A DNA stretch of 34,915 bases from an uncultured Thermoplasmata archaeon (lineage in GTDB: Archaea; Thermoplasmatota; Penumbrarchaeia; JAEHCK01; CBDVCJ01). Shown here piece by piece: positions 992 through 30,846 of this stretch. The DNA is taken from contig CBDVCJ010000002.1 in the NCBI GenBank assembly GCA_965372445.1, forward strand, positions 1 to 34,915, in the 5' to 3' direction. Every line of letters begins with the position of its first letter. Within the stretch, counting starts at the first letter, position 1. The notes under the pieces were generated by a model. It was not told where the DNA came from and ran no database searches. It saw nothing but the letters and a program-made list of their open reading frames with translations. The translations under genes and the position numbers were made by a program.

Positions 992-3217
992 ATGACTAAA
1001 CGACTTCTTTTCGCACAACCAATAAAGCCCGACCCTTATATTGAGGCTTCTTCGTTATTGGAAGGTAATTATGAGCTGACAGTAAAATCAGGAGCGTCTA
1101 AAGCCTTTACAGATATCGGGCGGGCGGTCTGGATGATTGCTCGCGCGTTGGATAATGATGCGGCATTGGTAAGTATCAATGTCGAAGGTAATGTTTTTGA
1201 TTGGAATATTGTGATAAATACTGCAGATCTGAACATTGCAATGAAATGCGGACCATATCAAGATAACGTTGGAGATATAAAAGACTGTATTGTCCAATTA
1301 ATGTTCGAGGGCGATGATGATAAGATCGAGATTTTCACACAATTTCTCACTGAGAAATTAGACCACAATCCTTTTGAGATTAATGATTGGGATAATTTTT
1401 CCACCAAAACCGGCGTGTCTAAAGATGAGGTGCTGAATGCTTGGGAAAGTTTATTAGGTGAAAACTTTGCGGTGATTCGAGGTCGAGAAGTAGAACCTCA
1501 ACCCGTAGAAGTACTTCCGGAATATCAACCTGCACTGCAATTAGAGGGTGAACCTGGTGCTACTAGCCCCCACATGCCGATGGCAGAACCGATGGAAGAT
1601 CTAGGTGAACTACCCGCACCGGAACAACCTAGGAAGAAGGTAAGAAGGTTAAAAAAGGTCAAGTTAAAATTCAAAACACCGAAAGTAAGTACTAGAAAAT
1701 GTCCAAAATGTGGCGAGATTGTTGAGGTGAACATTACTGACGGGCCTATACAATTTCAATGCACTTCCTGTGGATTGAAAGGCAAGTTCAAGAGGAAGAA
1801 GAGGGAAATACCTGAATCTCCACCACCAGAAATTGCAGCTCAAGAGTTACCGATCGAAGAACCGTCAGAGATACCAGAAGTGGAGCTGCCAGCACCCGAA
1901 ATTCTAACTGACGAGCCGCCTGAACCGGATGTTATATCTGAAGCACGTCCCGAGATGCCTGAGGTGGAACCGATCGAACCGGAAGTACCGCCTGAGATCA
2001 TGCCTGGTGAAGAACCTGCGGAGCCCGAGATAACACCTGAACCCTCGCCCGAAATACCGCCTGAGACCGAACCTGAAGTACCACCCGAACCAGAGCCAGA
2101 AATTGCCGAGGAAGTGCCAACGCCAGAAGAGCCCGAACCGGAACCAGAAATTGCCGAGGAAGTGCCAACGTCAGAAGAACCTGAACCAGAGCCGGAAACA
2201 GCAGAGGAAGTACCAATGGCTGAAGAGCCCGAACCGGAGCCAGAAATAGCGGAAGAAGTGCCAATGGCTGAAGAACCCGAACCGGAGCCAGAAATAGCAG
2301 AGGAAGTGCCAACGCCAGAAGAACCCGAACCCGAGACCTCGGCACCAGAAGCTGCACCGGCAGTACCACTTGAAACAATGGCCGCAGAATTGATCCCAAC
2401 AGAAACCACGCCTGAAACCGAGCCGGAACTTGAAGCGCCAATATCAGAGCCAGAAGAGTCCGCGGCAACTTCAATGGCAGACTCCATATCTGCCACGCCA
2501 CTAACAATTCCCGAAGCTGAGGAACTAGAGATGGCACAACCCCCGGAGCCCGCGCCAATATACCCGGAAGAACCCGTTGAAGAAGAACATTTACCAACCG
2601 CTGAACCTGCGCCTGACCTGGAGCAAAGATCTGAGGATGAACTTTATGATAATGCCAGGGGCTATATGAACGAAGGCAAATTCATAGATGCGATCGCGAG
2701 ACTGGATGAAATACTGGCGATCAATCCAAATTATATTGATGCCTGGAGTGAGAAGGGCGTTGCGCTATGGGGTATAGGCAGACTTGGTGAAGCGATAGAC
2801 TGTTACAATAAGGCAATTGAATTGGATCAAAATAACAGTGAAACATTGATCAATAAAGGTGTTGCATTAAATGCATTAGGCAAAAAAGACGAGGCAATTG
2901 CAACTTATGACCAGGCAATAATGGTAAATGAAGATGTCGAGGAAGCCTGGCTAAATAAAGGCGTCACACTATTCACTCTGGATAGATTGGAAGAGGCAGA
3001 GAATTGTTTTGAGAGAGCCACCAAAATCAATCCTAGCAGTGAAGAAGCCTGGCTCAACCTCGCGGTAATTCTTGAAAAACTTGATAAATATAAAGACGCC
3101 CTGGAATCCTATGAAAAAGTGTTGACCATCAATCCAGATAATAATGATGCTTTGGGCGGGCAAAGGGTTTGTAAAAAGGAGCTGCGACAAGAGCTACTTC
3201 GGAATTGGAATGTCTGA
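992..3217 (+). CDS. multidomain protein: unknown N-domain, zinc ribbon, Pro/Glu-rich acidic repeat region, C-terminal TPR repeats
   Basis: The track ORF 944..3217 begins at GTG. The ATG at 992 (MTKRLL) follows a GGGGG RBS. CPKCGEIVEV...CTSCG zinc ribbon is flanked by K/R stretches. Long PE-rich segment. About 6 TPR-like units, e.g. AWSEKGVALWGIGRLGEAIDCYNKAIELDQNN. Confidence 0.75.
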   Translation: MTKRLLFAQPIKPDPYIEASSLLEGNYELTVKSGASKAFTDIGRAVWMIARALDNDAALVSINVEGNVFDWNIVINTADLNIAMKCGPYQDNVGDIKDCIVQLMFEGDDDKIEIFTQFLTEKLDHNPFEINDWDNFSTKTGVSKDEVLNAWESLLGENFAVIRGREVEPQPVEVLPEYQPALQLEGEPGATSPHMPMAEPMEDLGELPAPEQPRKKVRRLKKVKLKFKTPKVSTRKCPKCGEIVEVNITDGPIQFQCTSCGLKGKFKRKKREIPESPPPEIAAQELPIEEPSEIPEVELPAPEILTDEPPEPDVISEARPEMPEVEPIEPEVPPEIMPGEEPAEPEITPEPSPEIPPETEPEVPPEPEPEIAEEVPTPEEPEPEPEIAEEVPTSEEPEPEPETAEEVPMAEEPEPEPEIAEEVPMAEEPEPEPEIAEEVPTPEEPEPETSAPEAAPAVPLETMAAELIPTETTPETEPELEAPISEPEESAATSMADSISATPLTIPEAEELEMAQPPEPAPIYPEEPVEEEHLPTAEPAPDLEQRSEDELYDNARGYMNEGKFIDAIARLDEILAINPNYIDAWSEKGVALWGIGRLGEAIDCYNKAIELDQNNSETLINKGVALNALGKKDEAIATYDQAIMVNEDVEEAWLNKGVTLFTLDRLEEAENCFERATKINPSSEEAWLNLAVILEKLDKYKDALESYEKVLTINPDNNDALGGQRVCKKELRQELLRNWNV
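2087..2335 (+). repeat. in-frame 48-nt tandem repeat x5 (plus a partial sixth) encoding EPEPEIAEEVP(T/M)(P/S/A)EEP
   Basis: Units at 2087, 2135, 2183, 2231 and 2279, read directly from nucleotide and protein sequence. Confidence 0.9.
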
Positions 3218-3218
3218 G

Positions 3219-4685
3219 CTAGCATTCATATGCACGTTTGCCGATCGAATCTTTTTTATAGAGCTCGATCAGATCTTCCTGCATATCTTGAGGATAGCCA
3301 TTCGGAAAATCGAGACACCCACTGCAAATATCAATATCGTCTCTATCACCAATTATTGAAGTTCTCAATGCATTCATACTGCTATACGCAAGTGAATCCG
3401 CACCGATATCTTGTGCAATCTCGTCCCATGGTCTTAAACCGCCGTCGTCATCGATCGCGATGAATTCTTTTTTACTGCGCATATCGATCCCAAGATAGCA
3501 TGGTGAGATTAGGGGTGGGCACCCAATTCTGACATGTACTTTTTTGGCACCCGCAGCTCTGAGTTTAGTGATGATCTTCCTAATATTCGTGCCTCTGACC
3601 AAACTATCATCAGTTACAACTATATCCTTACCATCAACTGCCGCATCAATTGCCGACATATTTTGCTCGGCTAACTCGTCCCGCTGCTCTTGGGTCTGGA
3701 GTATGAACGACCGTACTTTCTTATATTTTCTTAAACCTTCTTCAAGCGGAATGCCGCTTGCATGAGAATAGCCGATCGCATATCTTCGACCCGATTCCGG
3801 TACCGGTACAACAATATCGGCTTCCGCCGGGCTCTCTTGATACAATCGCTTGCCGAGCTCGACTCGAACCGTATGAACCGGGATAGCCTCAATGAACGAG
3901 TCGGGGTCCGCGAAATAGATATATTCAAACATACAAAGATGTTTCCTTTTTTTGACGATCTGTTGCTGGATCGGTGCATCCTCACGGGGGTCGAGACTTA
4001 AGATCGTACCGCCATCTACATCTTGAAATTCGGTAATACCCAATCTTTTTAGCGTTGAGGATTCCGAGGCAAGGTACCATGTAGTATTACTTCTTCCGTA
4101 AACCAGAGGTCGAATTTTATATGGGTCTGTCATTGCGAATAAATACGGTTTGTCAACTCCCACGGTCATGTATAATGCAGAATAGGCGCCTTTGAGCTGC
4201 GTCATTACATTAGCGCCGGCTTCAATTAAAGTGTCATAATTAATTTTACTCACTGAAGGTAATTTATTGGCCAATAAAAGTAATAAGAATTGTACATCAC
4301 AATCAGTTCTTGGCGGTCTTTTTAATTTGGCTAACAATTCCTGAGCGTTATAAATATTGCCGTTATGACAGGCGGCAAGAAAGGGGTTCACTATATATTC
4401 AGGTTGGGCATTTTTCCTCAGGCTCGTCCAATCATCAGCACCGGCAGTTGAATATCTTGTGTGGCCGATCCCTACATATCCAGGATGCTCAACACCAAAT
4501 TCGTGCTCGTCCGTGTAGCCATGTAATAATCTATTTACTAACCCAGCTTCTTTTTTGGTGTAAATATTGCCATCATAAGTGATCATCCCGACCGCAGAAT
4601 GGCCGCGGTGCTGTAAACTTCGCAGGCCAAGAAATATGGATCTTGAAATTGTATCATTTCCATATATTCCTATTATACCGCACAT
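3219..4685 (-). CDS. purF: amidophosphoribosyltransferase (glutamine-PRPP amidotransferase)
   Basis: N-terminal MCGIIGIYG (Ntn catalytic Cys). LQHRGHSAVGM. PRT motif DIVVTDDSLVRGTN. Cys pattern consistent with the [4Fe-4S] type (HLCMFEY, CPPLISPC, CSGC). GGAG RBS upstream. Confidence 0.9.
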   Translation of the reverse strand: MCGIIGIYGNDTISRSIFLGLRSLQHRGHSAVGMITYDGNIYTKKEAGLVNRLLHGYTDEHEFGVEHPGYVGIGHTRYSTAGADDWTSLRKNAQPEYIVNPFLAACHNGNIYNAQELLAKLKRPPRTDCDVQFLLLLLANKLPSVSKINYDTLIEAGANVMTQLKGAYSALYMTVGVDKPYLFAMTDPYKIRPLVYGRSNTTWYLASESSTLKRLGITEFQDVDGGTILSLDPREDAPIQQQIVKKRKHLCMFEYIYFADPDSFIEAIPVHTVRVELGKRLYQESPAEADIVVPVPESGRRYAIGYSHASGIPLEEGLRKYKKVRSFILQTQEQRDELAEQNMSAIDAAVDGKDIVVTDDSLVRGTNIRKIITKLRAAGAKKVHVRIGCPPLISPCYLGIDMRSKKEFIAIDDDGGLRPWDEIAQDIGADSLAYSSMNALRTSIIGDRDDIDICSGCLDFPNGYPQDMQEDLIELYKKDSIGKRAYEC

Positions 4686-4749
4686 TAATTTATTACTCCA
4701 TTATTTTGTAAGTTGTGGAAAAATTGTCAGATGTAATCTAGTCTGCCTT

Positions 4750-6156
4750 TTACTCGGGTTTCAAATATTCGCCGGTCCAGCAATACAAACATAACTTCTC
4801 TTTTGGTAACCCTATAGCTTCCACCATATCATCCATATTTTGATACCTTAGGGTCGTCACATCCAGATCCTTGGCGATCCACTCGAGCATTTTTTGATAT
4901 TTTTCGGAGTTATAATCCGTATATTCAGATACATCTTCGATATCTTCACCTTCAAGGTCACGGATCGCACGCCGCGCTGCAAGCTCCTTGATCTCTCGGG
5001 TGGAGAGATTGAATTTACATGGGAACATCAGCGGCGGGCATGCGGGCCTGACATGGATCTCTTTCGCACCGCGTTCCCAGAGCTTTTTTATTGTATAGTT
5101 CTTAAGTTGTGTGCCTCTCACAATAGAATCCTCACAGATCACCATACGGTTACCTTCAATGATCTCTTTTATCGGCACAAGCTTCATCGTCGCGATCAGG
5201 TTGCGGATCGCTTGCTGGGGCGGAATATAACTTCGGCCATAGCCGGCAGTATATTTTACAAATGGACGTCTATAGGGTTTGCCGGATTCCATTGCATACC
5301 CAAGAGCATGAGCAACACCCGAATCGGGGATGCCGCTGACCATATCGATCTCTATATCTTTATCTCGATTTGCAAGAGCTCTTCCGCATTTTTCTCGCAC
5401 GACCTCCACATTTATATCTTCATAATTCGAAGCTGGAAAACCGGTATAAACCCATAAGAACGCACAAATCTGGGTTAGATCGCCCCCAGGCCGTTGGGTG
5501 TCTACCCCATCCTTATTTATTAATACGATCTCACCAGGCCCAATATGTTTAATGGTTTTAAACCCAATATTTGGAAATGCAGTAGTTTCTGAGGTCACCG
5601 CCCAGGCATCGTCGCTTTGACCTATTGCTAAAGGCCAATACCCAAAACGGTCACGCACTGCGTACACACCGTCTTTGTTTAATAATAACAGCGAACATGC
5701 ACCTTCGATCTCATCAAACATCTTTTCGATGCCGTCAATAATATCGTCGCCTTGGGTTATCAACTTTGCAACTAATTCGGTGGGATTGACCGTATCTGCG
5801 CTCATTTCGCTGAAGGTTATGCCTTGGTCCAGAAGTTTTTTGGATAGCTCTGCGACATTTTCGATCAAGCCATTTGTCACGAGACAGAACGGTCCGAATT
5901 TGGAGTTTAAATATATTGGCTGCTCTTCATTAGCACTTATTACACCTATTCCTTTATTACCCTTCATTTGGTCAACATATTCAAAAAATTTCGATTTAAA
6001 TTGGGTTTGGCTTATTACATGGATCTGGCGCTGAAAATCGTCGCCAAGTACTGCCATCCCGCCAAATTCGGTCCCTAGATGTGAATGGTAATCTGTTCCA
6101 TAAAACAAAGTTTTTGCACAGTCTCCTTTTGAGACTACCCCGAAGATCCCGCTCAT
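4750..6156 (-). CDS. PurF-like amidophosphoribosyltransferase paralogue with Ser at the catalytic Cys position
   Basis: MSGIFGVV aligns with MCGIIGIY of the neighbouring PurF. PRT motif MVICEDSIVRGTQ. Conserved Cys positions QICAFLW, ACPPLMFPC, LCLYCW. GGAGGG RBS. Confidence 0.8.
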   Translation of the reverse strand: MSGIFGVVSKGDCAKTLFYGTDYHSHLGTEFGGMAVLGDDFQRQIHVISQTQFKSKFFEYVDQMKGNKGIGVISANEEQPIYLNSKFGPFCLVTNGLIENVAELSKKLLDQGITFSEMSADTVNPTELVAKLITQGDDIIDGIEKMFDEIEGACSLLLLNKDGVYAVRDRFGYWPLAIGQSDDAWAVTSETTAFPNIGFKTIKHIGPGEIVLINKDGVDTQRPGGDLTQICAFLWVYTGFPASNYEDINVEVVREKCGRALANRDKDIEIDMVSGIPDSGVAHALGYAMESGKPYRRPFVKYTAGYGRSYIPPQQAIRNLIATMKLVPIKEIIEGNRMVICEDSIVRGTQLKNYTIKKLWERGAKEIHVRPACPPLMFPCKFNLSTREIKELAARRAIRDLEGEDIEDVSEYTDYNSEKYQKMLEWIAKDLDVTTLRYQNMDDMVEAIGLPKEKLCLYCWTGEYLKPE

Positions 6157-6199: not shown

Positions 6200-6483
6200 T
6201 AGTATCCACTAGCCCTGAAATAGTTACGCGCGTGCCCCTGATTTGAATACTGTCTATTATCATGGTGCTATTCATAGACCTTTTCCTGCCCTTATATTGG
6301 CAAATTTGTACTTGCCAACCCAACGATTTTTTAAGTGCCAATTTGGAAAATTCTGGTGGTAGTGCTCGAACCGGGTTTTATTTGAATTTTCGAGCCTGAA
6401 ATGATCAATAATTCCACCTACCCCCCGACTCGGATTAATTTGAAACTTTATATATTTTTCTTTTAATGGATCGAGAGAATTTC

Positions 6484-7491: not shown

Positions 7492-7604
7492 TGGCGCACC
7501 TATTCCTTAATTGTATTATAACTACACAAAAGTTTCTATAATTTGGTAATTCTGGTTTGCGGAATGGTTGTGAAATAAAATTCTAAATCCCAGACGCTAT
7601 AAAA

Positions 7605-7777
7605 GGCACAAAGGCACAAAGTGACAGAGGCACAAAGTAAATTGTATGAAAATTAAAATGGGGGGTAGGTACTTTGTGCCTTCGGTCTCGATGTCCAAAG
7701 GACGAGAGACCTCGTGTAAAATAAGAATAATTTGATTGATAGCATATTTTACTCGTGTGCCTTTGGATCTTTGTGCC
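7605..7777. repeat. intergenic word palindrome (E2): GGCACAAA words and their complement
   Basis: ggcacaaa at 7605, 7613 and 7629. Complement ctttgtgcc at 7672 and tgtgcctttggatctttgtgcc at 7756-7777. Inner hairpin ggtctcg...cgagagacc near 7684-7710. Confidence 0.75.
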
Positions 7778-7800
7778 TATTTACGGTTTTATATTAAGGA

Positions 7801-7853
7801 AATTCGCATTTCGGATTTCACTCTTGAGGAGCTTTAATTTTGGGCACCGGGGG
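7801..7853. repeat. copy A (truncated) of the 3' end of the giant surface-protein gene
   Basis: aattcgcatttcggatttcactcttgaggagctttaattttgggcaccgg matches copies B and C. On the minus strand it reads ...PVPKIKAPQE-stop, as copy B does. Confidence 0.8.
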
Positions 7854-7879
7854 TTGCCCCTTCAGCTATCCATTTCAAC

Positions 7880-7895
7880 GTTAATTTTATAAAGT
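7880..7895 (+). promoter_or_regulatory. candidate TATA-like box (ttaattttataaag) for cassette 1
   Basis: About 35-45 nt upstream of the ATG at 7928. cAGGTGG RBS at 7915-7921. Confidence 0.3.
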
Positions 7896-7927
7896 TATAA
7901 AAGAATAAAATTATCAGGTGGAAAAAA

Positions 7928-8146
7928 ATGAAGATCGATGCCTTAAGGGAGCTTTATAAAAATAAATGGCTGGCAATCAAAGTTAGCAGATTCAGTAAAG
8001 ATAAAGTTCCTTTAGAAGGCAGTGTAATTGCAGAAGCTGATAATAGGGAGGAATTATGGAAAAAAGTTCCTCAAAGTAAGAGAAACGCAATTTATATCAT
8101 GTATTCTGGAAAGTATTTAGAGGAAGGATATGCTGCTGCATTTTAA
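7928..8146 (+). CDS. small protein, DUF5678-like (cassette 1, gene 1)
   Basis: 72-aa ORF with RBS. The pattern YKNKWLAIK...VIAEADNREELWKKV resembles DUF5678-type small archaeal proteins (assignment from memory). The C-terminal motif KRNAIYIMYSGK is shared with the cassette 2 small protein. Confidence 0.55.
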   Translation: MKIDALRELYKNKWLAIKVSRFSKDKVPLEGSVIAEADNREELWKKVPQSKRNAIYIMYSGKYLEEGYAAAF

Positions 8147-8242
8147 TGTGGAATTTTCATAAGAGTTCGACTAGATAAAGATGAACCCTTAATAGTTATA
8201 CCCGTTAGTCTAACTGGTAAAGTTGCTAAATATATCGTTAAT

Positions 8243-8545
8243 ATGGCATTGGATACTGGTGCAACTTTTGTTATGATCCCCTGGGATGTTGCTGAACGAT
8301 TGGGTTATGATCCGAAGGGATCTCAAAAGCAAGTATCAATAACAACCGCAAGTACAGTAGAAGAAGTTCCTGTTATTACTATTGAAGAATTCAATGTGCT
8401 GGGTCATTCCATGCGAAATGTTAAGGTAGTGGTACATGACCTTCCCCCCACAAGTCGAGTTGATGGCCTTTTTGGTTTGAATTTTTTAAATAATTTTAAT
8501 TTAAAACTAATGTTCAAGAATGGATATTTGGAATTATCTGATTAA
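8243..8545 (+). CDS. retropepsin-like (clan AA) aspartic protease, cassette 1; homology extends upstream to about 8150 with no canonical start
   Basis: The DTGA active-site motif sits at residues 4-7 of the ATG-initiated ORF. The open frame 8147-8242 encodes CGIFIRVRLDKDEPLIVIPVSLTGKVAKYIVN, which looks like the missing N-terminal strands. It is in frame with the upstream ORF across one TAA. Confidence 0.6.
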   Translation: MALDTGATFVMIPWDVAERLGYDPKGSQKQVSITTASTVEEVPVITIEEFNVLGHSMRNVKVVVHDLPPTSRVDGLFGLNFLNNFNLKLMFKNGYLELSD

Positions 8546-8557
8546 AATTCTAATTCT

Positions 8558-8668
8558 TATTTCACTCTTGAGGTGCTTTGATTTTGGGCACCGGCAGTTG
8601 CTGTGGCACTGTAGACTGCTCTACCACAGTGGACTCTTGAGGTGCAACTTGCGGCTGCAGTTCAACTT
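8558..8668. repeat. copy B of the 3' end of the giant surface-protein gene
   Basis: 8584-8654 is identical (71/71) to 9440-9510. On the minus strand it reads ...QPQVAPQESTVVEQSTVPQQLPVPKIKAPQE-stop. Confidence 0.9.
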
Positions 8669-8761
8669 ATTGCCTTTCAAATAGGAAATTCCAAGAACCA
8701 AATAAACTCCAAGTACCAAATTCGAAATTTATTGCGTCAATATAACACTTCATAATTGAAA

Positions 8762-8793
8762 AAAATATATACCAATAAAGATATTTATAAATA
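8762..8793 (+). promoter_or_regulatory. AT-rich candidate promoter region for cassette 2 (aaaatatatacc / tatttataaat)
   Basis: Two TATA-like elements lie 24-55 nt upstream of the ATG at 8817. aGAGGAG sits at 8797-8803. Confidence 0.25.
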
Positions 8794-8816
8794 TTAAGAG
8801 GAGTAATAGGATAATT

Positions 8817-9035
8817 ATGGTTACTAGAGTAGGTAAGATTACCAAGATCAGCTTTAAGATCAATCCAAATGAAGTAGATCAGATAAAAAAATTGATCAAG
8901 ACCGAATTCCCCAATGAATATAAGATGAGCTATCGGAAAAAAGAACTAACTGTAACCGGCGATTTTTCAAGCTATAAAAAGCGTAATAAAATATTATATA
9001 TTTTAAGTGGTGGCAAAGTTGGGGAGAATGTATAG
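8817..9035 (+). CDS. small hypothetical protein (cassette 2, gene 1), diverged homologue of the cassette 1 small protein
   Basis: 72-aa ORF. C-terminal KRNKILYILSGGK parallels KRNAIYIMYSGK in the 7928..8146 product. Same position relative to a protease gene. Confidence 0.5.
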   Translation: MVTRVGKITKISFKINPNEVDQIKKLIKTEFPNEYKMSYRKKELTVTGDFSSYKKRNKILYILSGGKVGENV

Positions 9036-9354
9036 AGGCGTGGAAGTCAAAGCAAATGGTAGGTCGGCTATTGCAGTTGCATTTGTTGATTCGGGTTGTG
9101 ATGAGACAATAATCAGTGAGCGGTTAGCTAATAAATTGAAACTTAAATTATTTGGTAAATTTGAATCGCTATCCGCATCTCAAACTAAAATTATTGGTAA
9201 ACTCTGCAAAGTAACAATAAAAGATGAAAGAATTCAGGATCTACTGACCGTTGGTGTCACCAATAAACCATTTGAGGACGCCGAAGAACATGGTGTCGAT
9301 ATTATTCTAGGTCATGATTTTTTACAACGGAATAAAGTGAAATTGGTATTTTAA
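9007..9354 (+). CDS. retropepsin-like (clan AA) aspartic protease, cassette 2
   Basis: FVDSGCDETII (D-S-G active-site motif) and GHDFL near the C-terminus. Start is ambiguous: GTG 9007, GTG 9010, TTG 9019 or ATG 9028. It overlaps the upstream ORF in the +1 frame. Confidence 0.65.
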   Translation: MVAKLGRMYRGVEVKANGRSAIAVAFVDSGCDETIISERLANKLKLKLFGKFESLSASQTKIIGKLCKVTIKDERIQDLLTVGVTNKPFEDAEEHGVDIILGHDFLQRNKVKLVF

Positions 9355-9410
9355 AAAGATTCTAGATCCCAAAAAGGCGGATTTGGAAAATTGGGATTTA
9401 TGATTTGTTT

Positions 9411-9528
9411 CGAATTTCGGATTTCACTCCGGAGGATTCTTGGGCACCGGCAGTTGCTGTGGCACTGTAGACTGCTCTACCACAGTGGACTCTTGAGGTG
9501 CAACTTGCGGATGCTGTTCAACTTGAGG
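9411..9528. repeat. copy C: the authentic 3' end (and downstream flank) of the giant surface-protein gene
   Basis: cgaatttcggatttcactccggagg...ttgggcaccggcagttgctgtggcactgtagactgctctaccacagtggactcttgaggtgcaacttgcgg. See copies A and B. Confidence 0.9.
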
Positions 9529-12500
9529 TACTGGTTCTTCTTCCACCTGCGGCATCGGTGCCGGTTGTGGCGCAGGCTTGACCTGGGGTACGATTTGTGG
9601 TGTAACCTCGGGGGTTGCGGGTTGCTCTGGGGGTGGCATTTCTGGAGCAGGGGGTTGTTCAGGCGGGACTTCTGGTGCCGTTGGTTGTTCTGGGATTGGA
9701 GCCTCTGGAGTTGGTACTTGTTCAGGCGGTACTTCTTCCGGAGGCGGAGGTTGAGCTTCTTCGACAATCTGCTCTTCTTCCTTCCCTTTTTTCTTTTTGA
9801 GGAAGATGAACAGCAGTATCAATACTACGGTTATGATTACGATAATTCCGATAAGCGCATAGAGCATTGTGTTATCTTTGTCGCCATCCTTTGGTTCATC
9901 GCCATCTTTCACGGTAATTGTCAAAGTGGATTCTTCCGATGCATCTTCACTTTCAACAATAAATCTAATCGTATATTCTCCAGGTTCCATATCTTCGGGA
10001 ATTGTAATTGTCACGGTAATCTGCCCGGAATCGCTTTCAGTTAAAGAAAATGAACTCTTGGAGAATTGAATATCAGCTGAGGTGAAATCATCCGATTCGA
10101 ATTTAATGTTGAAATCATCTTCGATGTTGCCATCATTTGTTATAGTAATCGTAACATTCTCAGAATCACTCGGTTTCAAATTTAAAGATGAAGGTGAAAT
10201 TGATATTGAGACATCATAATCCGGTTCAAAATCTTCAGAAACAACCTTAACATCGATGTTAACTTCATCTTTTGCAGTTATATCACTTAAAGAGGTCGCA
10301 GTCACGGTAATTGTATAATCCCCAATGGTAAAATCATCTGGAATATCAATACTAAGTATTACAATTGAATCACTATCTGGCTCCAAATTCCCATTAGTTA
10401 CTTCAATGGTAATATCTGATTGTGACATATCAGAACTTAGTTCAATTTTGAAGTTGTCTATTGAATTGCCTTCATTTTTAACGGTTAAATTAATAACTTT
10501 AGACTCGCCCTGTTTAATTGTGACCGAATCTCTTTCAGTTGTAAGATTAACCTTGTAGATCGGTTCGAATCCTAAATCAATAGTAAATCTAAACAAGCCT
10601 GATAAACAAACACCATTAGTTGGCTCGACTTCCCAATAATATGTTTTACCATCTACCAACTCATTTTCTAAAGTATATTCGGTGCTGGTTAATCCTGCTT
10701 TGATTGTGGTATGAGGATCTGGACTTTCATCAAGAGTCACTGAATAAGTAATGAACTCAGTTCCGGAATAATCAAGTTTCCATTTCAAGGTCGGTGTCAA
10801 TGTATCGACAGTGGTTTTATCTGGTGGAGTTAATAAAGTAACCTTTGGTGTAAATTCAGATATTGTACTATCGACAATAATTGAAATATCTGATTTCACT
10901 ACAATTCCACTATCTTTATCAGTTAAGACCAGTTCAATATCTTCGGTTCCTGCTATATTTTCTTTTGGTGTGATCTTGAGAGTATCATTTACTGTATCGA
11001 TTATTTCGATTGATTTGATATAAGTATAAACTTGTGGTTCAATGCTCCAGGTTAAATTTTCATCTGTATCCTCAATATCGCTTTCAAACGACGTTAAATC
11101 AAATAGAAGTGGCTGTATACCTACACTAATATTATCTAAATTTTCGGAAATTATAGGCAGATTATTTAGAACCTCAAGAGAATCGTTAATGTATTTCCAA
11201 CCACTTGATACAGATTCATTATCTTCGAATTTCACACGGAAATCATAGTTTCCGAGTATTGAATCGATATACGTTGTTAAACTAACTTCATATCTATTAT
11301 TAAGATAATTACTTGTCAAGTTAGTCCATTTACTCTCGCTTTGAGGTTTGTATTGAGAATAACAAGATAACATATCTTCCGGAGTTTCATAATCAGTTCC
11401 ATTGATGTATAATGATACAGATTCGGTTCGATAAATTGAAGTCTCTGATAAACCTGCATCAATTACTTTCGGACCTGAATTGTATACGAGCAAGGAATCA
11501 TTCAAATAAAGCCATGAACTATAATTCCCATCACTATCATTAACTCTTACACGAAAATCATAGTAACCGAATAATGCATCAAATGGAATATTGAAAGAAC
11601 AATCCCACCTTCCATTATTATACATTGGAGCACTAAGATCGGTTTTATCCCAAGATGTTTCGGATGAATCTCGATATTCTAATTCTATCGTGAGATTCTC
11701 TTCAATTTCTTCAATATCAGTAGAATTTATCCATATCGATATTGAATCCCCTAATAAGGCTGAGTTATTAGATAATGATGTATCTTCAATCGCTGGAATA
11801 TTATTTAATACCAATAGCGAGTCATTTAAATATAACCAGTTACTAAATAATCCACCTGTATCATTAAATTTTACTCTAAAATCATATAATCCTAAAGTTG
11901 CGTTTTTCGGTGGTGTAAAGCTTACTTCCCATCGGGAATTTTGGTATTGTAGGGCTGAAAAATAAGTACTGTTCCAAACTTGTTCATTTGGATCTCTATA
12001 TTCAAAAAATGGAGTTAAGTTGTGCTCTGAATCTTCAATATCTGTGGCATTTGTATGTAAATAAATTGGATTTATTCTTAGAGTTGTTGAATCCGAAATT
12101 TTAAGATCCACAACATGAGGTGGTATGTTTAACTTCATTCTATAAATAAAAACATCATAAAGTCCACCATTGAACGTAGTATCATTGGCACCAGGAGTAG
12201 TCGGGAAATCGAATGATTGTGTCCTGCCCGTGACAAAAGCATCACATTCAAGGCTAACTGCAATTCCCCAACCCATATCAATATCGTTTCCACCAACGAA
12301 TGTAGAATACATAAGTAATGAACCTGTAGAATCTAGGTTAGATACGAATGTCTCTGCTCCAATTAAGATGCTATCATAGGCACCAGGGGTAATAGGGAAA
12401 TCAGTTGAGCCTGTCCAACCTGTTATATATGAATTCCCATGAATATCAGTTGCTATATCTCTTCCTTCATCCGAGCCACTTCCACCTATAAATGTGGAAT

Positions 12501-14331
12501 ACAAAAGAGACGATCCTGTTTGGTTTAACTTTAATACAAAAGCATCACTATTGCCATTAAATATTGGATTGTAGGCCCCAGTCGTGTTTGGGAAGTCTGT
12601 TGAAGAGGTATCTCCAGTAATGTATGCATTATTATTAGAGTCAATAGCAATGCCACTACAATCATCTTCATCACTTCCACCAATGAATGTGGAATATAAG
12701 ATCAATGACCCTGCGGAATTTAATTTGAACACAAAACAATCACCCCATCCATTGTATATTGTATCATTTGCACCAGGTGTAGTCGGAAAATTGGGTGAAC
12801 TAGTCGATCCAGATACATATGTGTTGCCACTTGAATCGACAGCGATACCCATTCCATTGTCAGCATTACTTCCTCCAATGAATGTAGAATATATAATCAT
12901 TGAACCAGTCGGATTCATTTTGAGCACAAAAACATCATCCCAACCGTTGAATGTTGTATCATTTGCACCGACAGTTGTTGGAAAATTCAAAGAATTTGTC
13001 CATCCAGTTATATATGCATTACCCATGAGATCTACGTCAATCCCTCCTCCAGATTCAGTATTGCTCCCACCAATAAATGAAGAATACAGTAGTAATGAAC
13101 CCATTTGGTTCAACTTGAATAAAAATAAATCATAAAGGCCCCCATTATATATAGTCTTATTAGCTCCAATCGTAACTGGGAAATCGGTTGAAAATGTCTC
13201 TCCCATAACATACGCATTATTACTAGTATCTATCTCAATTCTTTTACCATAGTCATGATCCACGCTACCCACAAAGGTTGAGTAAATAAGAGAAGAGCCT
13301 GTGGAATTCAACTTCAAAACAAAGACATCACCTAGGCCATTATGTATCGTATCATTTGCACCAGAGGTAATCGGGAAATCGGTTGAGTAAGTCGAGCCAG
13401 TTATATATGCGTTTCCGCTTGAATCGATTGTTATATCTTTACCCTCTTCATTAGCGTTTCCACCTAGGTATGTAGAATAAATTAGTGGATCAATGATAAT
13501 GGGTCTGTCTTTATTATAATTGCCAACAATCTCAAATCCATATGTCATGGGGTTTAATATTTTAAATCTACCCTCAACTATGTTTTTACCTCCCTCTCCC
13601 TCTTGACAAATAAATAAATCAGAATCTAACATATTAAATAATGAAGTACAAACAACGAGAGCACCTTGAAAATTTATTAATATTTTTTCAGCACCATTAT
13701 AGTTCATTCGAATATTATCTGGATCTCCACCTGGATGCACAATAAAATCATATTTCAATCCTTTGTCCGATGAATAATATCTCAAATCAATATCATCATA
13801 AATATTCTCGTAAATTATCTCTTGATAGTTTGGAACATTAGTACACCATTTACTCGAATCGTTTCCATAAAAGTAATTACTTCTATGAGGTAACAAACCT
13901 ATGCCTTTTGGCTTAATATCATTACATCCCTCAAAATTCAATTTTAGTACAACACTTTTTCTTGGCCGGAGAATTTCAGGTTCAAACTCAGGGTGAAACC
14001 TATCATATGGATCCAGCTGTACTTCATTCTCATTAATTGGTTCCTTAATTTCAAACACAACTCCGTCATCAAGAAACCAAACACCTTTCCCTTGAATGTA
14101 ATATCTAACAGAATCATTCCCAACCTGCCCACGATTTTCCGTGAAGAATCCATCAAGTCTATTGATACTTTGTAAAATCTGTTGCTCTTGAGCTTTATCA
14201 ATAACTGAGCTATCAATTGAATAATCCATTTCTGAGGTTGAGTTATTATTTAGTGTTGGCTTTGAAGTTCCAAAATTTACAGCTGAAAGTAGTAAAAATA
14301 AACTAATGATAATTATTACAATTTTCCTCAT
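9424..14331 (-). CDS. giant membrane-anchored cell-surface protein (signal peptide, SBBP beta-propeller repeats, Ig-like/CARDB-like domains, C-terminal TM helix, Pro-rich tail)
   Basis: 1635 aa. N-terminal MRKIVIIIISLFLLLSAVNFG. About 8 units of YSTF(I/V)GGS..D.G.GIAVDSSGNAYITG.T.S.DFP.T.GA (SBBP type). Four ~105-aa repeats with the signature YDFRVKF.D. TM helix MLYALIGIIVIITVVLILLFIFL followed by KKKKGKEEE and a ~105-aa P/E/Q-rich tail. GGGGG RBS. Confidence 0.9.
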   Translation of the reverse strand: MRKIVIIIISLFLLLSAVNFGTSKPTLNNNSTSEMDYSIDSSVIDKAQEQQILQSINRLDGFFTENRGQVGNDSVRYYIQGKGVWFLDDGVVFEIKEPINENEVQLDPYDRFHPEFEPEILRPRKSVVLKLNFEGCNDIKPKGIGLLPHRSNYFYGNDSSKWCTNVPNYQEIIYENIYDDIDLRYYSSDKGLKYDFIVHPGGDPDNIRMNYNGAEKILINFQGALVVCTSLFNMLDSDLFICQEGEGGKNIVEGRFKILNPMTYGFEIVGNYNKDRPIIIDPLIYSTYLGGNANEEGKDITIDSSGNAYITGSTYSTDFPITSGANDTIHNGLGDVFVLKLNSTGSSLIYSTFVGSVDHDYGKRIEIDTSNNAYVMGETFSTDFPVTIGANKTIYNGGLYDLFLFKLNQMGSLLLYSSFIGGSNTESGGGIDVDLMGNAYITGWTNSLNFPTTVGANDTTFNGWDDVFVLKMNPTGSMIIYSTFIGGSNADNGMGIAVDSSGNTYVSGSTSSPNFPTTPGANDTIYNGWGDCFVFKLNSAGSLILYSTFIGGSDEDDCSGIAIDSNNNAYITGDTSSTDFPNTTGAYNPIFNGNSDAFVLKLNQTGSSLLYSTFIGGSGSDEGRDIATDIHGNSYITGWTGSTDFPITPGAYDSILIGAETFVSNLDSTGSLLMYSTFVGGNDIDMGWGIAVSLECDAFVTGRTQSFDFPTTPGANDTTFNGGLYDVFIYRMKLNIPPHVVDLKISDSTTLRINPIYLHTNATDIEDSEHNLTPFFEYRDPNEQVWNSTYFSALQYQNSRWEVSFTPPKNATLGLYDFRVKFNDTGGLFSNWLYLNDSLLVLNNIPAIEDTSLSNNSALLGDSISIWINSTDIEEIEENLTIELEYRDSSETSWDKTDLSAPMYNNGRWDCSFNIPFDALFGYYDFRVRVNDSDGNYSSWLYLNDSLLVYNSGPKVIDAGLSETSIYRTESVSLYINGTDYETPEDMLSCYSQYKPQSESKWTNLTSNYLNNRYEVSLTTYIDSILGNYDFRVKFEDNESVSSGWKYINDSLEVLNNLPIISENLDNISVGIQPLLFDLTSFESDIEDTDENLTWSIEPQVYTYIKSIEIIDTVNDTLKITPKENIAGTEDIELVLTDKDSGIVVKSDISIIVDSTISEFTPKVTLLTPPDKTTVDTLTPTLKWKLDYSGTEFITYSVTLDESPDPHTTIKAGLTSTEYTLENELVDGKTYYWEVEPTNGVCLSGLFRFTIDLGFEPIYKVNLTTERDSVTIKQGESKVINLTVKNEGNSIDNFKIELSSDMSQSDITIEVTNGNLEPDSDSIVILSIDIPDDFTIGDYTITVTATSLSDITAKDEVNIDVKVVSEDFEPDYDVSISISPSSLNLKPSDSENVTITITNDGNIEDDFNIKFESDDFTSADIQFSKSSFSLTESDSGQITVTITIPEDMEPGEYTIRFIVESEDASEESTLTITVKDGDEPKDGDKDNTMLYALIGIIVIITVVLILLFIFLKKKKGKEEEQIVEEAQPPPPEEVPPEQVPTPEAPIPEQPTAPEVPPEQPPAPEMPPPEQPATPEVTPQIVPQVKPAPQPAPMPQVEEEPVPQVEQHPQVAPQESTVVEQSTVPQQLPVPKNPPE
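12096..13485 (-). repeat. coding region of about 8 tandem SBBP-type beta-propeller repeats (~58 aa each)
   Basis: Repeat periodicity read from the translation. Boundaries are approximate, computed from residues ~283-745. Confidence 0.65.
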
Positions 14332-14478: not shown

Positions 14479-14732
14479 GAGGTGATAGGAAATAGGTGGT
14501 AGGACATAGGCTTCTCTTCGGGAGCCGGTAGCACCGGGAGTACAGGAGCGTGAACCTATGTCTAATGTTGAAATGCAAATTGGAGTTTGGAAATTTGAAA
14601 TTTGCAATTTTTATTTTGCAATTTGAAATCCTGTTCGTTACTCCCGACACTCCCGTTACTCCCGATACTCCCGAACATTGACATTCCCCAGTAATGTCCC
14701 TATCACCTACCTCCTATCACCTAAATATCACC
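14479..14732. repeat. intergenic nested word palindrome (E3)
   Basis: Outer arms: gaggtgataggaaataggtggtaggacat versus atgtccctatcacctacctcctatcacc. Middle: cgggagccggtagcaccgggagtacaggagcg versus cgttactcccgacactcccgttactcccgatactcccg. Centre: aaatttgaaatttgcaattt-ttattttgcaatttgaaat. Confidence 0.8.
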
Positions 14733-15169: not shown

Positions 15170-15404
15170 CGGAAAGGCAATAGGAATTTCTATAGTTGTG
15201 TTATTGACAATAACTATTGCGTCCTATGTCCTTAGTCATATAATGCCATTTAGTCCTTAACTATTTACTACTAAACCGTCCGAAGTCCTTTTCGGGAACC
15301 GAATTCAGAACCTTGGACGCAGGACTCACGACTTAGGACTCAGGACCATCGTTACCCGAAATTAGTTACCATATGTCGCCTCTCGCCTTTCGCCCTTCCG
15401 AAAG
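15170..15404. repeat. intergenic nested word palindrome (E4)
   Basis: cggaaaggcaatagg... versus cgcctctcgcctttcgcccttccgaaag. gcgtcctatgtccttagtc...tagtcctta versus ggacgcaggactcacgacttaggactcaggac. Confidence 0.7.
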
Positions 15405-22672: not shown

Positions 22673-23018
22673 GATAGGTTATAGGATTTAGGATATAGGA
22701 TATGAATATAGGGACATTGCTGACATAATTGTCAAAGGTCAAAGGTCCAAATCGGGATACGGGAATCGGGATACGGGATTCGATTTATCAATGTATAACG
22801 TAAGAAACCCCGTTCTTTAGGACGGGGAGTTGAAGTCGAGAAAATGGCAGGTCAGATTTTGCATTAAAAGGCGATTGGCTCTGTCCTTTAGGATAGATGT
22901 ATAGATCGTATCATAAAAATGTAATCGAATCCCGAGAAAGGCTTTCGACCTTGGACACTACGACAAATGATATGCCTATTACCTATCTCCTACCACCTAA
23001 ATCCTAACTCCTGACCCC
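22673..23018. repeat. intergenic nested word palindrome (E8)
   Basis: gataggttataggatttaggatataggatatgaatataggg versus cctattacctatctcctaccacctaaatcctaactcctgacccc. gtcaaaggtcaaaggtcc versus cgaccttggac. aatcgggatacgggaatcgggatacgggattcga versus tcgaatcccgag. Central hairpin ccccgt-tctttagg-acgggg. Confidence 0.8.
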
Positions 23019-27542: not shown

Positions 27543-27852
27543 TTTTGATTTGGGGATGGCTCCGTATGGGGAATTGGGAATGGGGAATGGGGCCCCACCC
27601 CCCATATCAAACCGCAGAGGACGCTGAGGACGCTGAAGGCGCTGAATTTTATTATAATATAAGGATTCGAGATTCCAGTTTCGAGATTCGAGGTGACCTA
27701 TGTAAAGGTAAAACGCAAAAGACGAAAAGGACCGCGTGGGGACTCAAATTTAGAATCCAGAATCTGGAATCCAATAGAGAATTCAGCGGCCTCAGCGTAC
27801 TCAGCGGTTAAAAGTGGAGGGGGTTTCGGTTCCCGAATCCCGATACTCCCGG
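27543..27852. repeat. structured intergenic element E9 with termini shared with E10
   Basis: Left end tttttgatttggggatggctccgtatggggaattgggaatggggaatgggg + ccccacccccc. Inner arms gaggacgctgaggacgctgaaggcgctgaatt versus aattcagcggcctcagcgtactcagcgg. Right end gtggagggggtttcggttcccgaatcccgatactcccgg. Confidence 0.8.
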
Positions 27853-30613: not shown

Positions 30614-30846
30614 TTTTTGATTTGGGGATTGTTCCATATGGGGAATGGGGAATCGGGAATCGTCCACCCCCCGCCCTTATGTTAACACGAAGAACACGAA
30701 AAACACGAAATTTAGTAGTGGAAAAAAATTCTTTCGTGTTTTCGTGCTTTCGCGTTAGAAATTGGGGTGGGGGGTTCGAATCCCGACTCCCGAGTAAGTA
30801 CCTACCACCTATCACCTACCACCTAACTCCTACCACCTATTACCAC
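30614..30846. repeat. structured intergenic element E10 (same family and orientation as E9), plus a CCTACCACC word tail
   Basis: Left end tttttgatttggggattgttccatatggggaatggggaatcgggaatcg + ccaccccccgccc. Inner arms cacgaagaacacgaaaaacacgaaa versus tttcgtgttttcgtgctttcgcg. Right end ttggggtggggggttcgaatcccgactcccgag (to 30794). Then cctaccacctatcacctaccacctaactcctaccacctattaccac. Confidence 0.8.

Follow-up and report, generated by a model that had tools for sequence, protein, structure and literature searches.

Two small-protein and protease cassettes at the 3' end of a surface-protein gene in an uncultured Thermoplasmata archaeon, consistent with serial capture

Three copies of a gene end and two cassettes

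The DNA analysed here, called the window below, is a stretch of 34,915 nucleotides from an uncultured Thermoplasmata archaeon (contig CBDVCJ010000002.1, positions 1 to 34,915). Two small two-gene cassettes, each encoding a 72 amino acid (aa) protein and a retropepsin-like protease, lie in it between three copies, all in direct orientation, of the 3' end of a giant surface-protein gene: repeat A (7801-7861), repeat B (8554-8668) and repeat C (9409-9524). We interpret this arrangement as a record of serial cassette capture in an uncultured member of the Thermoplasmata, and as a variant of the known hot-spot and attachment-site (att) type architectures, not a new kind of system. The anchor gene (9424..14331, reverse strand) encodes a 1635 aa protein with a DUF7948 domain, six SBBP repeats, Ig-like domains and a single transmembrane helix, which is followed by the sequence KKKKGKEEE and a Pro/Glu/Gln-rich cytoplasmic tail. 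Both cassettes are co-oriented, on the forward strand, and convergent on this gene.

An earlier note, made from the letters of the window alone, had proposed that three such repeats delimit two cassettes, and both a repeat search and an exact-core match compared with shuffled sequence confirm this. B and C are 98% identical over 85 nt (8584-8668 and 9440-9524), A and B are 88% identical over 48 nt (7810-7857 and 8554-8601), and the repeats are spaced 744 and 862 nt apart. Within the 85 nt repeat, B and C match at 71 of 71 positions (8584-8654 and 9440-9510), as the note had stated; this 71 nt core occurs exactly twice, with no occurrence in 100 shuffles. The 15-mer ATTTCACTCTTGAGG is present in A and B, and in C with two mismatches, against an expectation of 0.04. 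All three repeats read on the reverse strand. Repeat C comprises the working 3' end of the anchor gene and about 16 nt beyond its stop codon, the open reading frame 9424..14331 (-) bearing out the note's view that C is the real end of the 1635 aa gene. The translation of C on the gene strand ends in QQLPVPKNPPE-stop; B, the displaced pseudo-3' end that separates the cassettes, reads stop-VELQPQVAPQESTVVEQSTVPQQLPVPKIKAPQE-stop and terminates in QQLPVPKIKAPQE-stop; and A, putatively the oldest displaced pseudo-3' end, reads stop-LKGQPPVPKIKAPQE-stop. Open reading frames reach the stop codon in B and C. The two B/C mismatches, at 8655 and 8658, read A/T and T/G in the sense direction, and B has a junction of its own at 8668/8669 as well as a stop-proximal segment distinct from that of C.

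The only segment common to all three repeats is an 11 nt core (TTGGGCACCGG; sense CCGGTGCCCAA), present at 7840-7850 in A, 8584-8594 in B and 9440-9450 in C, and the relationships among the repeats switch around it. On its gene side B is the same as C for 60 nt plus the 11 nt core and A is unrelated; from the core to the stop codon it is A and B that agree (20 of 22 positions), B and C aligning there with 13 matches, 2 mismatches and 8 gap positions; and in the 13 nt past the stop codon A resembles C at 12 positions. This three-way heterogeneity is significant (Fisher p = 2e-6). Such a switching mosaic is what would be expected of hybrid junctions left by two successive recombinations through the gene end, rather than of the uniform decay of duplicated DNA. 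We note that the 13-mer ACTCTTGAGGTGC (sense GCACCTCAAGAGT, encoding APQE) is present twice in repeat B, at 8564-8576 and 8631-8643, so the A/B-type C-terminus (KAPQE-stop) echoes an internal VAPQES of the tail, which is thus internally repetitive.

Three other candidate features of the repeats and junctions were rejected. An inverted gene-end copy in the 8669-8816 spacer is not significant (score 24, null maximum 28), and neither is a motif, TTGCCyyTTCA, common to the distal junctions of both cassettes. A diversity-generating retroelement (DGR), with B and C as variable and template repeats, was considered because a true DGR adjoins the module at another locus (L032, below); there is no reverse transcriptase in the window, and the B/C differences are not adenine-specific.

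Cassette 1 opens with an upstream arm (7862..7927) that is conserved at locus L007 (see below) and carries a TATA-like box (TTTATAAA, 7886-7893) ending 34 nt ahead of the ATG at 7928. This ATG starts the gene for small protein 1 (7928..8146), a weak relative of DUF5678 that ends in EEGYAAAF, and the gene for protease 1 follows (8159..8545, 128 codons, DTGA active site). The first codon of the latter (8159-8161) is ATA, and all homologs (e.g. L007, P0001) have ATG at this position. No ATG, GTG or TTG precedes Met28, and the next in-frame ATG is at 8243. A frameshift was ruled out, the change being one of ATG to ATA at the start codon. Given the ATA start and the lack of any start before Met28, protease 1 is probably not made in full, and its gene is probably decaying. 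Cassette 2 is preceded by a locus-specific spacer and promoter region (8669..8816) with an 18 nt unit repeated twice in tandem (8686-8721) and a TATA-like box (8784-8791) ending 25 nt ahead of the ATG at 8817. Small protein 2 (8817..9035) could be assigned to no known family, and no relationship to the small protein 1 family was detected; the start of protease 2 (9028..9354, 108 aa, DSGC active site) overlaps its stop codon (ATGTATAG).

The window proteases match the Pfam families Asp_protease_2 (E 4e-17) and gag-asp_proteas (E 6e-9), and by their D-T/S-G motif, these Pfam matches and the modelled fold of family 1 they are clan AA retropepsin-like aspartic proteases; the DTGA and DSGC active sites that had been read in them are confirmed in the translations and by the Pfam matches. 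Each cassette contains just two small genes, with no integrase among them, and no recombinase domain is present in any sizeable open reading frame of the 35-kb window, in agreement with the note's statement that no integrase or transposase lies there. No tRNA gene is present in the window and no known RNAs were found in it.

Relatives of the cassettes and of the architecture

The two cassettes have different affinities. Proteases 1 and 2 are 21% identical, and small proteins 1 and 2 have one 16-residue stretch in common; profile comparison found no relationship between small protein 2 and the small protein 1 family (hhalign probability 0.8%). Cassette 1 is 84-86% identical at the nucleotide level to loci L001 and L007, with similarity only from 7840 to about the protease stop codon (7840-8549), and protease relatives with 70-77% identity occur in Thermoplasmata and in a Calditrichia bacterium. 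For cassette 2 the nucleotide identities are 88% (L090) and 73% (L091-L093), with similarity only at 8810-9354 and unrelated flanks. With no more than 21% identity between the proteases, and with closer relatives of each cassette at other loci whose similarity ends at the cassette borders, the cassettes are, judged by their sequences, independent acquisitions and horizontally mobile, and the earlier view that their contents are not recent duplicates stands. Cassette 1 would be the older insert, since A and B (88%) are more diverged than B and C (98%) and protease 1 has lost its ATG to ATA. Exact look-ups of both small proteins found the window's cassette proteins on no other contig, and carriage by a virus was rejected, IMG/VR containing no relatives.

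The combination of a cassette with a displaced gene end appears to be repeated at one related locus and is suggested at two others. At L007 a copy of cassette 1 is convergent on a different surface-protein gene, whose ectodomain is unrelated to that of the window's protein. On the far side of the cassette lies a displaced pseudo-end (GQAPVPKVKTQTLDVKQNE-stop), which meets the cassette where A does in the window; this pseudo-end and the working end have a 15 nt repeat (GGACAAGCNCCGGTN) in common. The block encoding the transmembrane helix is 83% identical at the nucleotide level between window 9750-9900 and L007 690-800, with a tail stretch of 37 of 38, and the window-L007 similarity limit falls at the 11 nt core, the junction of A with cassette 1 being identical in both. 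The transmembrane helix, KKKKGKEEE and the Pro-rich tail look like a portable block set on otherwise unrelated extracellular parts.

A contig of 8855 nt from JGI sample 3300042731 carries a homolog of the giant gene, 63% identical, that ends in APVPKVKAPED-stop, the A/B variant of the C-terminus, 17 nt from a convergent pair of genes for a 128 aa protease and a 72 aa protein; a second giant paralog follows in tandem, and then another protease pair. At L008 (contig CBDUXN010000036.1 of a Thermoplasmata metagenome-assembled genome, MAG) the repeated end is that of a different gene, here called X. Its 3' end is present three times (466-728, 1714-1771 and 2819-3081; 263, 58 and 263 nt), the copies bounding an MNT-HepT cassette and a small-protein and protease cassette, and the anchor X is co-directional with these. 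X, which is not found in the window, encodes a 322 aa protein that begins with a zinc ribbon and ends in a PD-(D/E)XK domain weakly resembling Cas4. The gene occurs at L002 4733-5700, L003 4732-5703, L008 259-729, L011 67-1056 and 3732-4700, and L100 3-731, with several copies per locus; a unit with X directly ahead of the small-protein and protease pair is intact in five Thermoplasmata loci besides L008, and X might be a mobility or partner gene. At L010, in a Methanomassiliicoccales MAG, 99 nt direct repeats (2805-2903 and 3635-3733, 82% identical) bound an MNT-HepT cassette beside the module. The first of these begins at the stop codon of a 609 aa surface-protein gene, and both retain a frame ending in ECWKRFEAR(D/N)S(G/D)AGAKDT-stop. 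Overall, direct repeats tightly flank the module (within 500 nt) in 6 of 56 loci compared with 2.8% of random segments of the same loci, an approximately fourfold excess.

Further repeats border the module at other loci. At L042 a repeat of about 160-210 nt is present three times (1436-1642, 4524-4730 and 5504-5659; about 85-90% identical) and bounds the module and an adjacent pair of genes for 67 aa and 92 aa proteins that resembles a ribbon-helix-helix (RHH)/RelE-type pair. In Deltaproteobacteria and Omnitrophota (L009 2088-2143/4219-4274 and L071 3034-5750) the module lies between near-perfect palindromic repeats 0.3-2 kb apart, which are reminiscent of attC- or REP-bounded arrays.

Possible routes of capture

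An architecture of this kind, in which the gene end itself is repeated, calls for the end on the chromosome to have recombined with a copy of it on incoming DNA. The sequences show the repeats and the mosaic they form, two cassettes that are independent and mobile, and an architecture that recurs, and serial recombinational insertion at the gene end is supported. As to how this came about, we tentatively favour, at slightly less than an even chance, serial capture of the two cassettes at the 3' end of the surface-protein gene by homology-anchored recombination of the Campbell or one-ended type, the circular or one-ended intermediate and the enzyme being parts that we infer. Recombination would pass through the last ~50-140 nt of the surface-protein gene, either through a circle that had been excised between flanking repeats and integrates in the Campbell manner, or by one-ended homologous recombination with DNA of a related strain or a paralog bearing the same tail end. 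The gene-end version of the incoming DNA would become the working end, and the old end would be pushed outward as a dead copy. The gene would so have come to lie beside cassette 1, leaving A; cassette 2 would have arrived next, turning the old end into B and creating C. General homologous recombination of the host is the most likely agent, a cassette-specific integrase being less likely, and it would have ample substrate because near-identical transmembrane and tail blocks are shared among different surface-protein genes. The earlier note had proposed repeated insertion at one att-like site in the gene's 3' end, each insertion restoring an intact end; serial insertion there with a new working end each time is retained, but a dedicated att site with its integrase is less likely, in view of the variable duplicated lengths, the differing arms, a core that recurs at none of 102 other loci and the lack of a recombinase nearby.

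Several observations weigh against homology-anchored capture. All three switch points of the mosaic and the window-L007 limit fall at or next to the one 11 nt core, as a fixed crossover site would make them do. The block of transmembrane helix, tail and cassette is 83-89% identical between the window and L007, so their common junction may have been inherited and the recurrence is weakened accordingly; the remnants at L008 could be deleted X copies rather than target duplications. Homologous recombination alone leaves the origin of the first duplication unexplained. An empty site or close sister strain was not found, a scan of GTDB genomes with a 40 nt core being null, and protein scans for orthologs of the giant gene returned only relatives of at most 63% identity, whose tails differ and whose flanks are short.

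A fixed crossover site would be supplied by site-specific integration, in which the core CCGGTGCCCAA would be the att site, the attP of satellite cassettes would carry the replacement gene end, and a tyrosine or serine recombinase would act in trans. We consider this rather unlikely. In its favour, the core is the sole segment shared by A, B and C, every mosaic boundary and the window-L007 limit lie at it, the reading frame is restored after each event, and att copies in tandem, increasingly decayed, commonly mark integration hot spots such as tRNA-gene and tycheposon-type islands. It is opposed by the lack of an integrase within 35 kb, by the (proximal) arms beside the core, which differ between the window and L007 copies of one cassette, by duplicated lengths that vary (15, 48 and 85-96 nt), by the absence of the core from 102 other loci, with the L008 and L010 arrays using unrelated sequences, and by cassette ends that are not conserved in more distant copies. 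An integron-like array, the alternative named in the earlier note, failed the structural tests and is very improbable. In such a cluster of attC sites lacking an integron integrase (CALIN), the boundary repeats would be attC sites, folding as single strands for recombination by an IntI encoded elsewhere, and the tandem, co-oriented cassettes of 0.6-0.85 kb and the bacterial module relatives between palindromic repeats (L009, L071) would suit it, as would the occurrence of integrons and CALINs in Archaea, often with toxin-antitoxin (TA) cassettes (PMC9668308). The single-stranded folds of A, B and C, however, reach z values of only -1.0 to -1.6 on both strands, 14-34 of 200 shuffles folding as well, so that no attC hairpin is seen; neither GTTRRRY nor RYYYAAC can be read at the junctions 7857-7862, 8546-8560, 8664-8672 and 9355-9415; the repeats are coding sequence of the neighbouring gene; and the 35-kb window has no IntI.

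There are three further alternatives. Deletion could have left A and B as the ends of tandem paralogs or of larger elements, whose bodies were lost while the addictive modules were kept. TA-like modules resist loss; the JGI contig has two giant paralogs in tandem with a protease cassette each; and the 58 nt remnant with its small-protein and protease cassette at L008 matches the unit of X, small protein and protease at L002, L011 and L100. This would nevertheless take two deletions of ~4.9 kb, each ending 48-115 nt from the stop codon, and a recent gene conversion as well to make B and C identical at 71 of 71 positions beside unrelated cassettes, and it is hard to reconcile with an A/cassette 1 junction that is identical in the window and L007; we consider it improbable. 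An assembly chimera, in which two haplotypes with one cassette each were threaded serially through the 71 nt exact repeat, likewise has a poor chance of being correct. The contig is metagenome-derived, the repeat is below many assembler k-mer limits, and these cassette proteins were found on no other contig, but B is not a copy of C, as the 8668/8669 junction, the 8655 and 8658 mismatches and the different stop-proximal segment indicate. Given that junction and segment, each haplotype would even under a chimera keep a cassette flanked by gene-end copies, and only their co-occurrence in tandem would be lost. Plain tandem duplication of a unit of gene end and cassette, after which the cassettes diverged while the repeats evolved in concert, would fit the regular 744/862 nt spacings and the like gene order in both units. 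It is scarcely credible for proteases of 21% identity and small proteins unrelated by profile comparison, and the 86-88% nucleotide relatives that each cassette has elsewhere exclude it.

The arrangement has parallels in several known systems. Elements that integrate at gene 3' ends and carry a replacement end include the archaeal and bacterial tRNA-gene integrators, the tycheposon-type tandem islands and the casposons at the aEF-2 gene end. As in these, the window inserts are flanked by direct repeats of the target's 3' end, the target frame is restored, and one site is reused, giving tandem inserts with progressively decayed outer repeats; unlike these, the inserts are only 0.6-0.85 kb long and are without integrase, Cas1, terminal inverted repeats or conserved ends, their target is a low-complexity cytoplasmic tail, and the repeat length ranges from 15 to ~96 nt. 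With integron arrays and CALINs (PMC9668308) they have in common small, co-oriented tandem cassettes, TA-like or defence-like cargo, and no need of a recombinase in cis. They differ from them in having no attC structure, core motif, IntI or attI, in boundaries that are copies of a protein-coding gene end, and in that each cassette has its own promoter. Campbell-type recombination resembles the present case in that one homologous anchor yields an insertion, a duplicated anchor, hybrid repeats and a variable duplication length; to our knowledge it has no earlier description as a recurrent stacking of TA-like cassettes at archaeal gene ends.

Stacked capture at a gene end is a moderately unusual form of gene capture. 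If homology-anchored capture is correct, archaea have a simple way of gathering and exchanging small defence- or TA-like modules that needs no integrons, transposases or element-borne integrases. The landing pad would be a short, conserved end of a gene, and a fossil copy would record each capture. A broader possibility, which we think quite unlikely, is that Thermoplasmata, and perhaps other archaea, possess a capture platform that serves the purpose of an integron by another mechanism and stacks promoter-bearing TA or defence cassettes at conserved 3' coding ends, duplicating the end with each capture through a novel recombinase or host recombination; its targets would be surface-protein tails or the end of the zinc-ribbon/PD-(D/E)XK gene X.

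The two-gene module

The cassettes draw notice to a widespread and uncharacterised module, a small protein ending in GYAAAF with a stand-alone retropepsin-like protease, which moves freely between bacteria and archaea and has so far been listed only as a defence candidate. Among 80 loci collected from GTDB genomes by protease profile, 65 have an open reading frame ending within 60 nt of the protease start, and the pair, with the GYA[AV]AF ending, is kept in about 60 of the 80. The module loci are spread patchily over many bacterial and archaeal phyla. TA cassettes are frequent neighbours of the module, those in archaeal loci being MNT-HepT, PIN and RHH/RelE-type cassettes.

The description of the small proteins as DUF5678-like fared less well. 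Small protein 1 matches DUF5678 (PF18929) with E 0.014 and 15.6 bits, under the Pfam gathering cut-off of 23.2, and weak matches are seen for 8 of the 22 members of its family, the best at E 3e-4; for small protein 2 there is no DUF5678 match. A profile search of the PDB with the small-protein family gave spurious designed-protein matches only. For the family-1 protease, a model (P0001, pLDDT 87) has as its top fold matches ApRick, the RVP domain of DDI1 and HIV-1 protease. Among solved structures, ApRick/APRc of Rickettsia conorii (PDB 5C9B/5C9D/5C9F) is the closest by sequence (E 4e-6) and by fold (TM score 0.72). It is likewise a single-domain clan AA protease, with ~20% identity, but forms the soluble part of a membrane protein and is encoded without a partner.

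Both window proteases match the PADLOC model PDC-M08B (E 7e-9 and 4e-4), whereas neither small protein matches a PADLOC model at E <= 0.01. PDC-M08, also a two-gene module, is one of 145 'guilt-by-embedding' defence candidates (bioRxiv 10.1101/2024.01.29.577857; PMC12988326) and has no known activity itself. We found no literature on the function of DUF5678, on PDC-M08 or on retropepsin-like TA systems. In view of the overlapping genes, the TA-type neighbours, the patchy spread over phyla and the PDC-M08B matches, the module is, from its context, most likely a TA-like or defence-like pair, as the earlier note had surmised; the small protein would control the protease. It resembles type II TA systems in its compact two-gene operon, stop/start overlap, patchy distribution and MNT-HepT/PIN/RelE-type surroundings; it differs from them in that no DNA-binding antitoxin fold can be recognised in the small protein and a retropepsin-like protease is not an established toxin.

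Two features beside the module at other Thermoplasmata loci may be mentioned. L032 (MAG contig CAZFVW010000006.1, 146-6535) contains a DGR with an Avd-like gene, a reverse transcriptase, an Asn-rich template repeat and two target genes of the FGE type whose C-termini are variable, and the module sits between the template repeat and the second target. In two Thermoplasmata genomes (L008 1652, 2501, 2564, 2621 and 3955; L002 ~6425-6455) every cassette is followed by a 35 nt element with a hairpin, TTCACAAAGGGCTCCGCCCTTTTAATCCC, which could be a terminator or recombination-related.

The setting of the cassettes is an archaeal chromosome: the window also encodes proteasome alpha, NurA/HerA, UPF0147, carbamoyl-phosphate synthase and an MvhD/ferredoxin cluster, and the giant gene and cassette 1 have their nearest relatives in Thermoplasmata MAGs. 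Most intergenic regions of the window carry short tandem repeats with 7-9 nt units (230-261, 441-473, 7602-7637, 7756-7789, 14590-14674, 15315-15346, 22674-22782, 27566-27692 and 30684-30844). Beside repeat A, AAAGGCAC is repeated 4.5 times, with inverted copies 120-140 nt off and a perfect 12 bp stem (7628-7639/7670-7681); the tandem repeats near repeat A have no Rfam match. Within the gene for a 757 aa tetratricopeptide repeat (TPR) protein, a 48 nt unit is repeated 5.3 times (2083-2335), in a GC-rich and strongly AT-skewed stretch.

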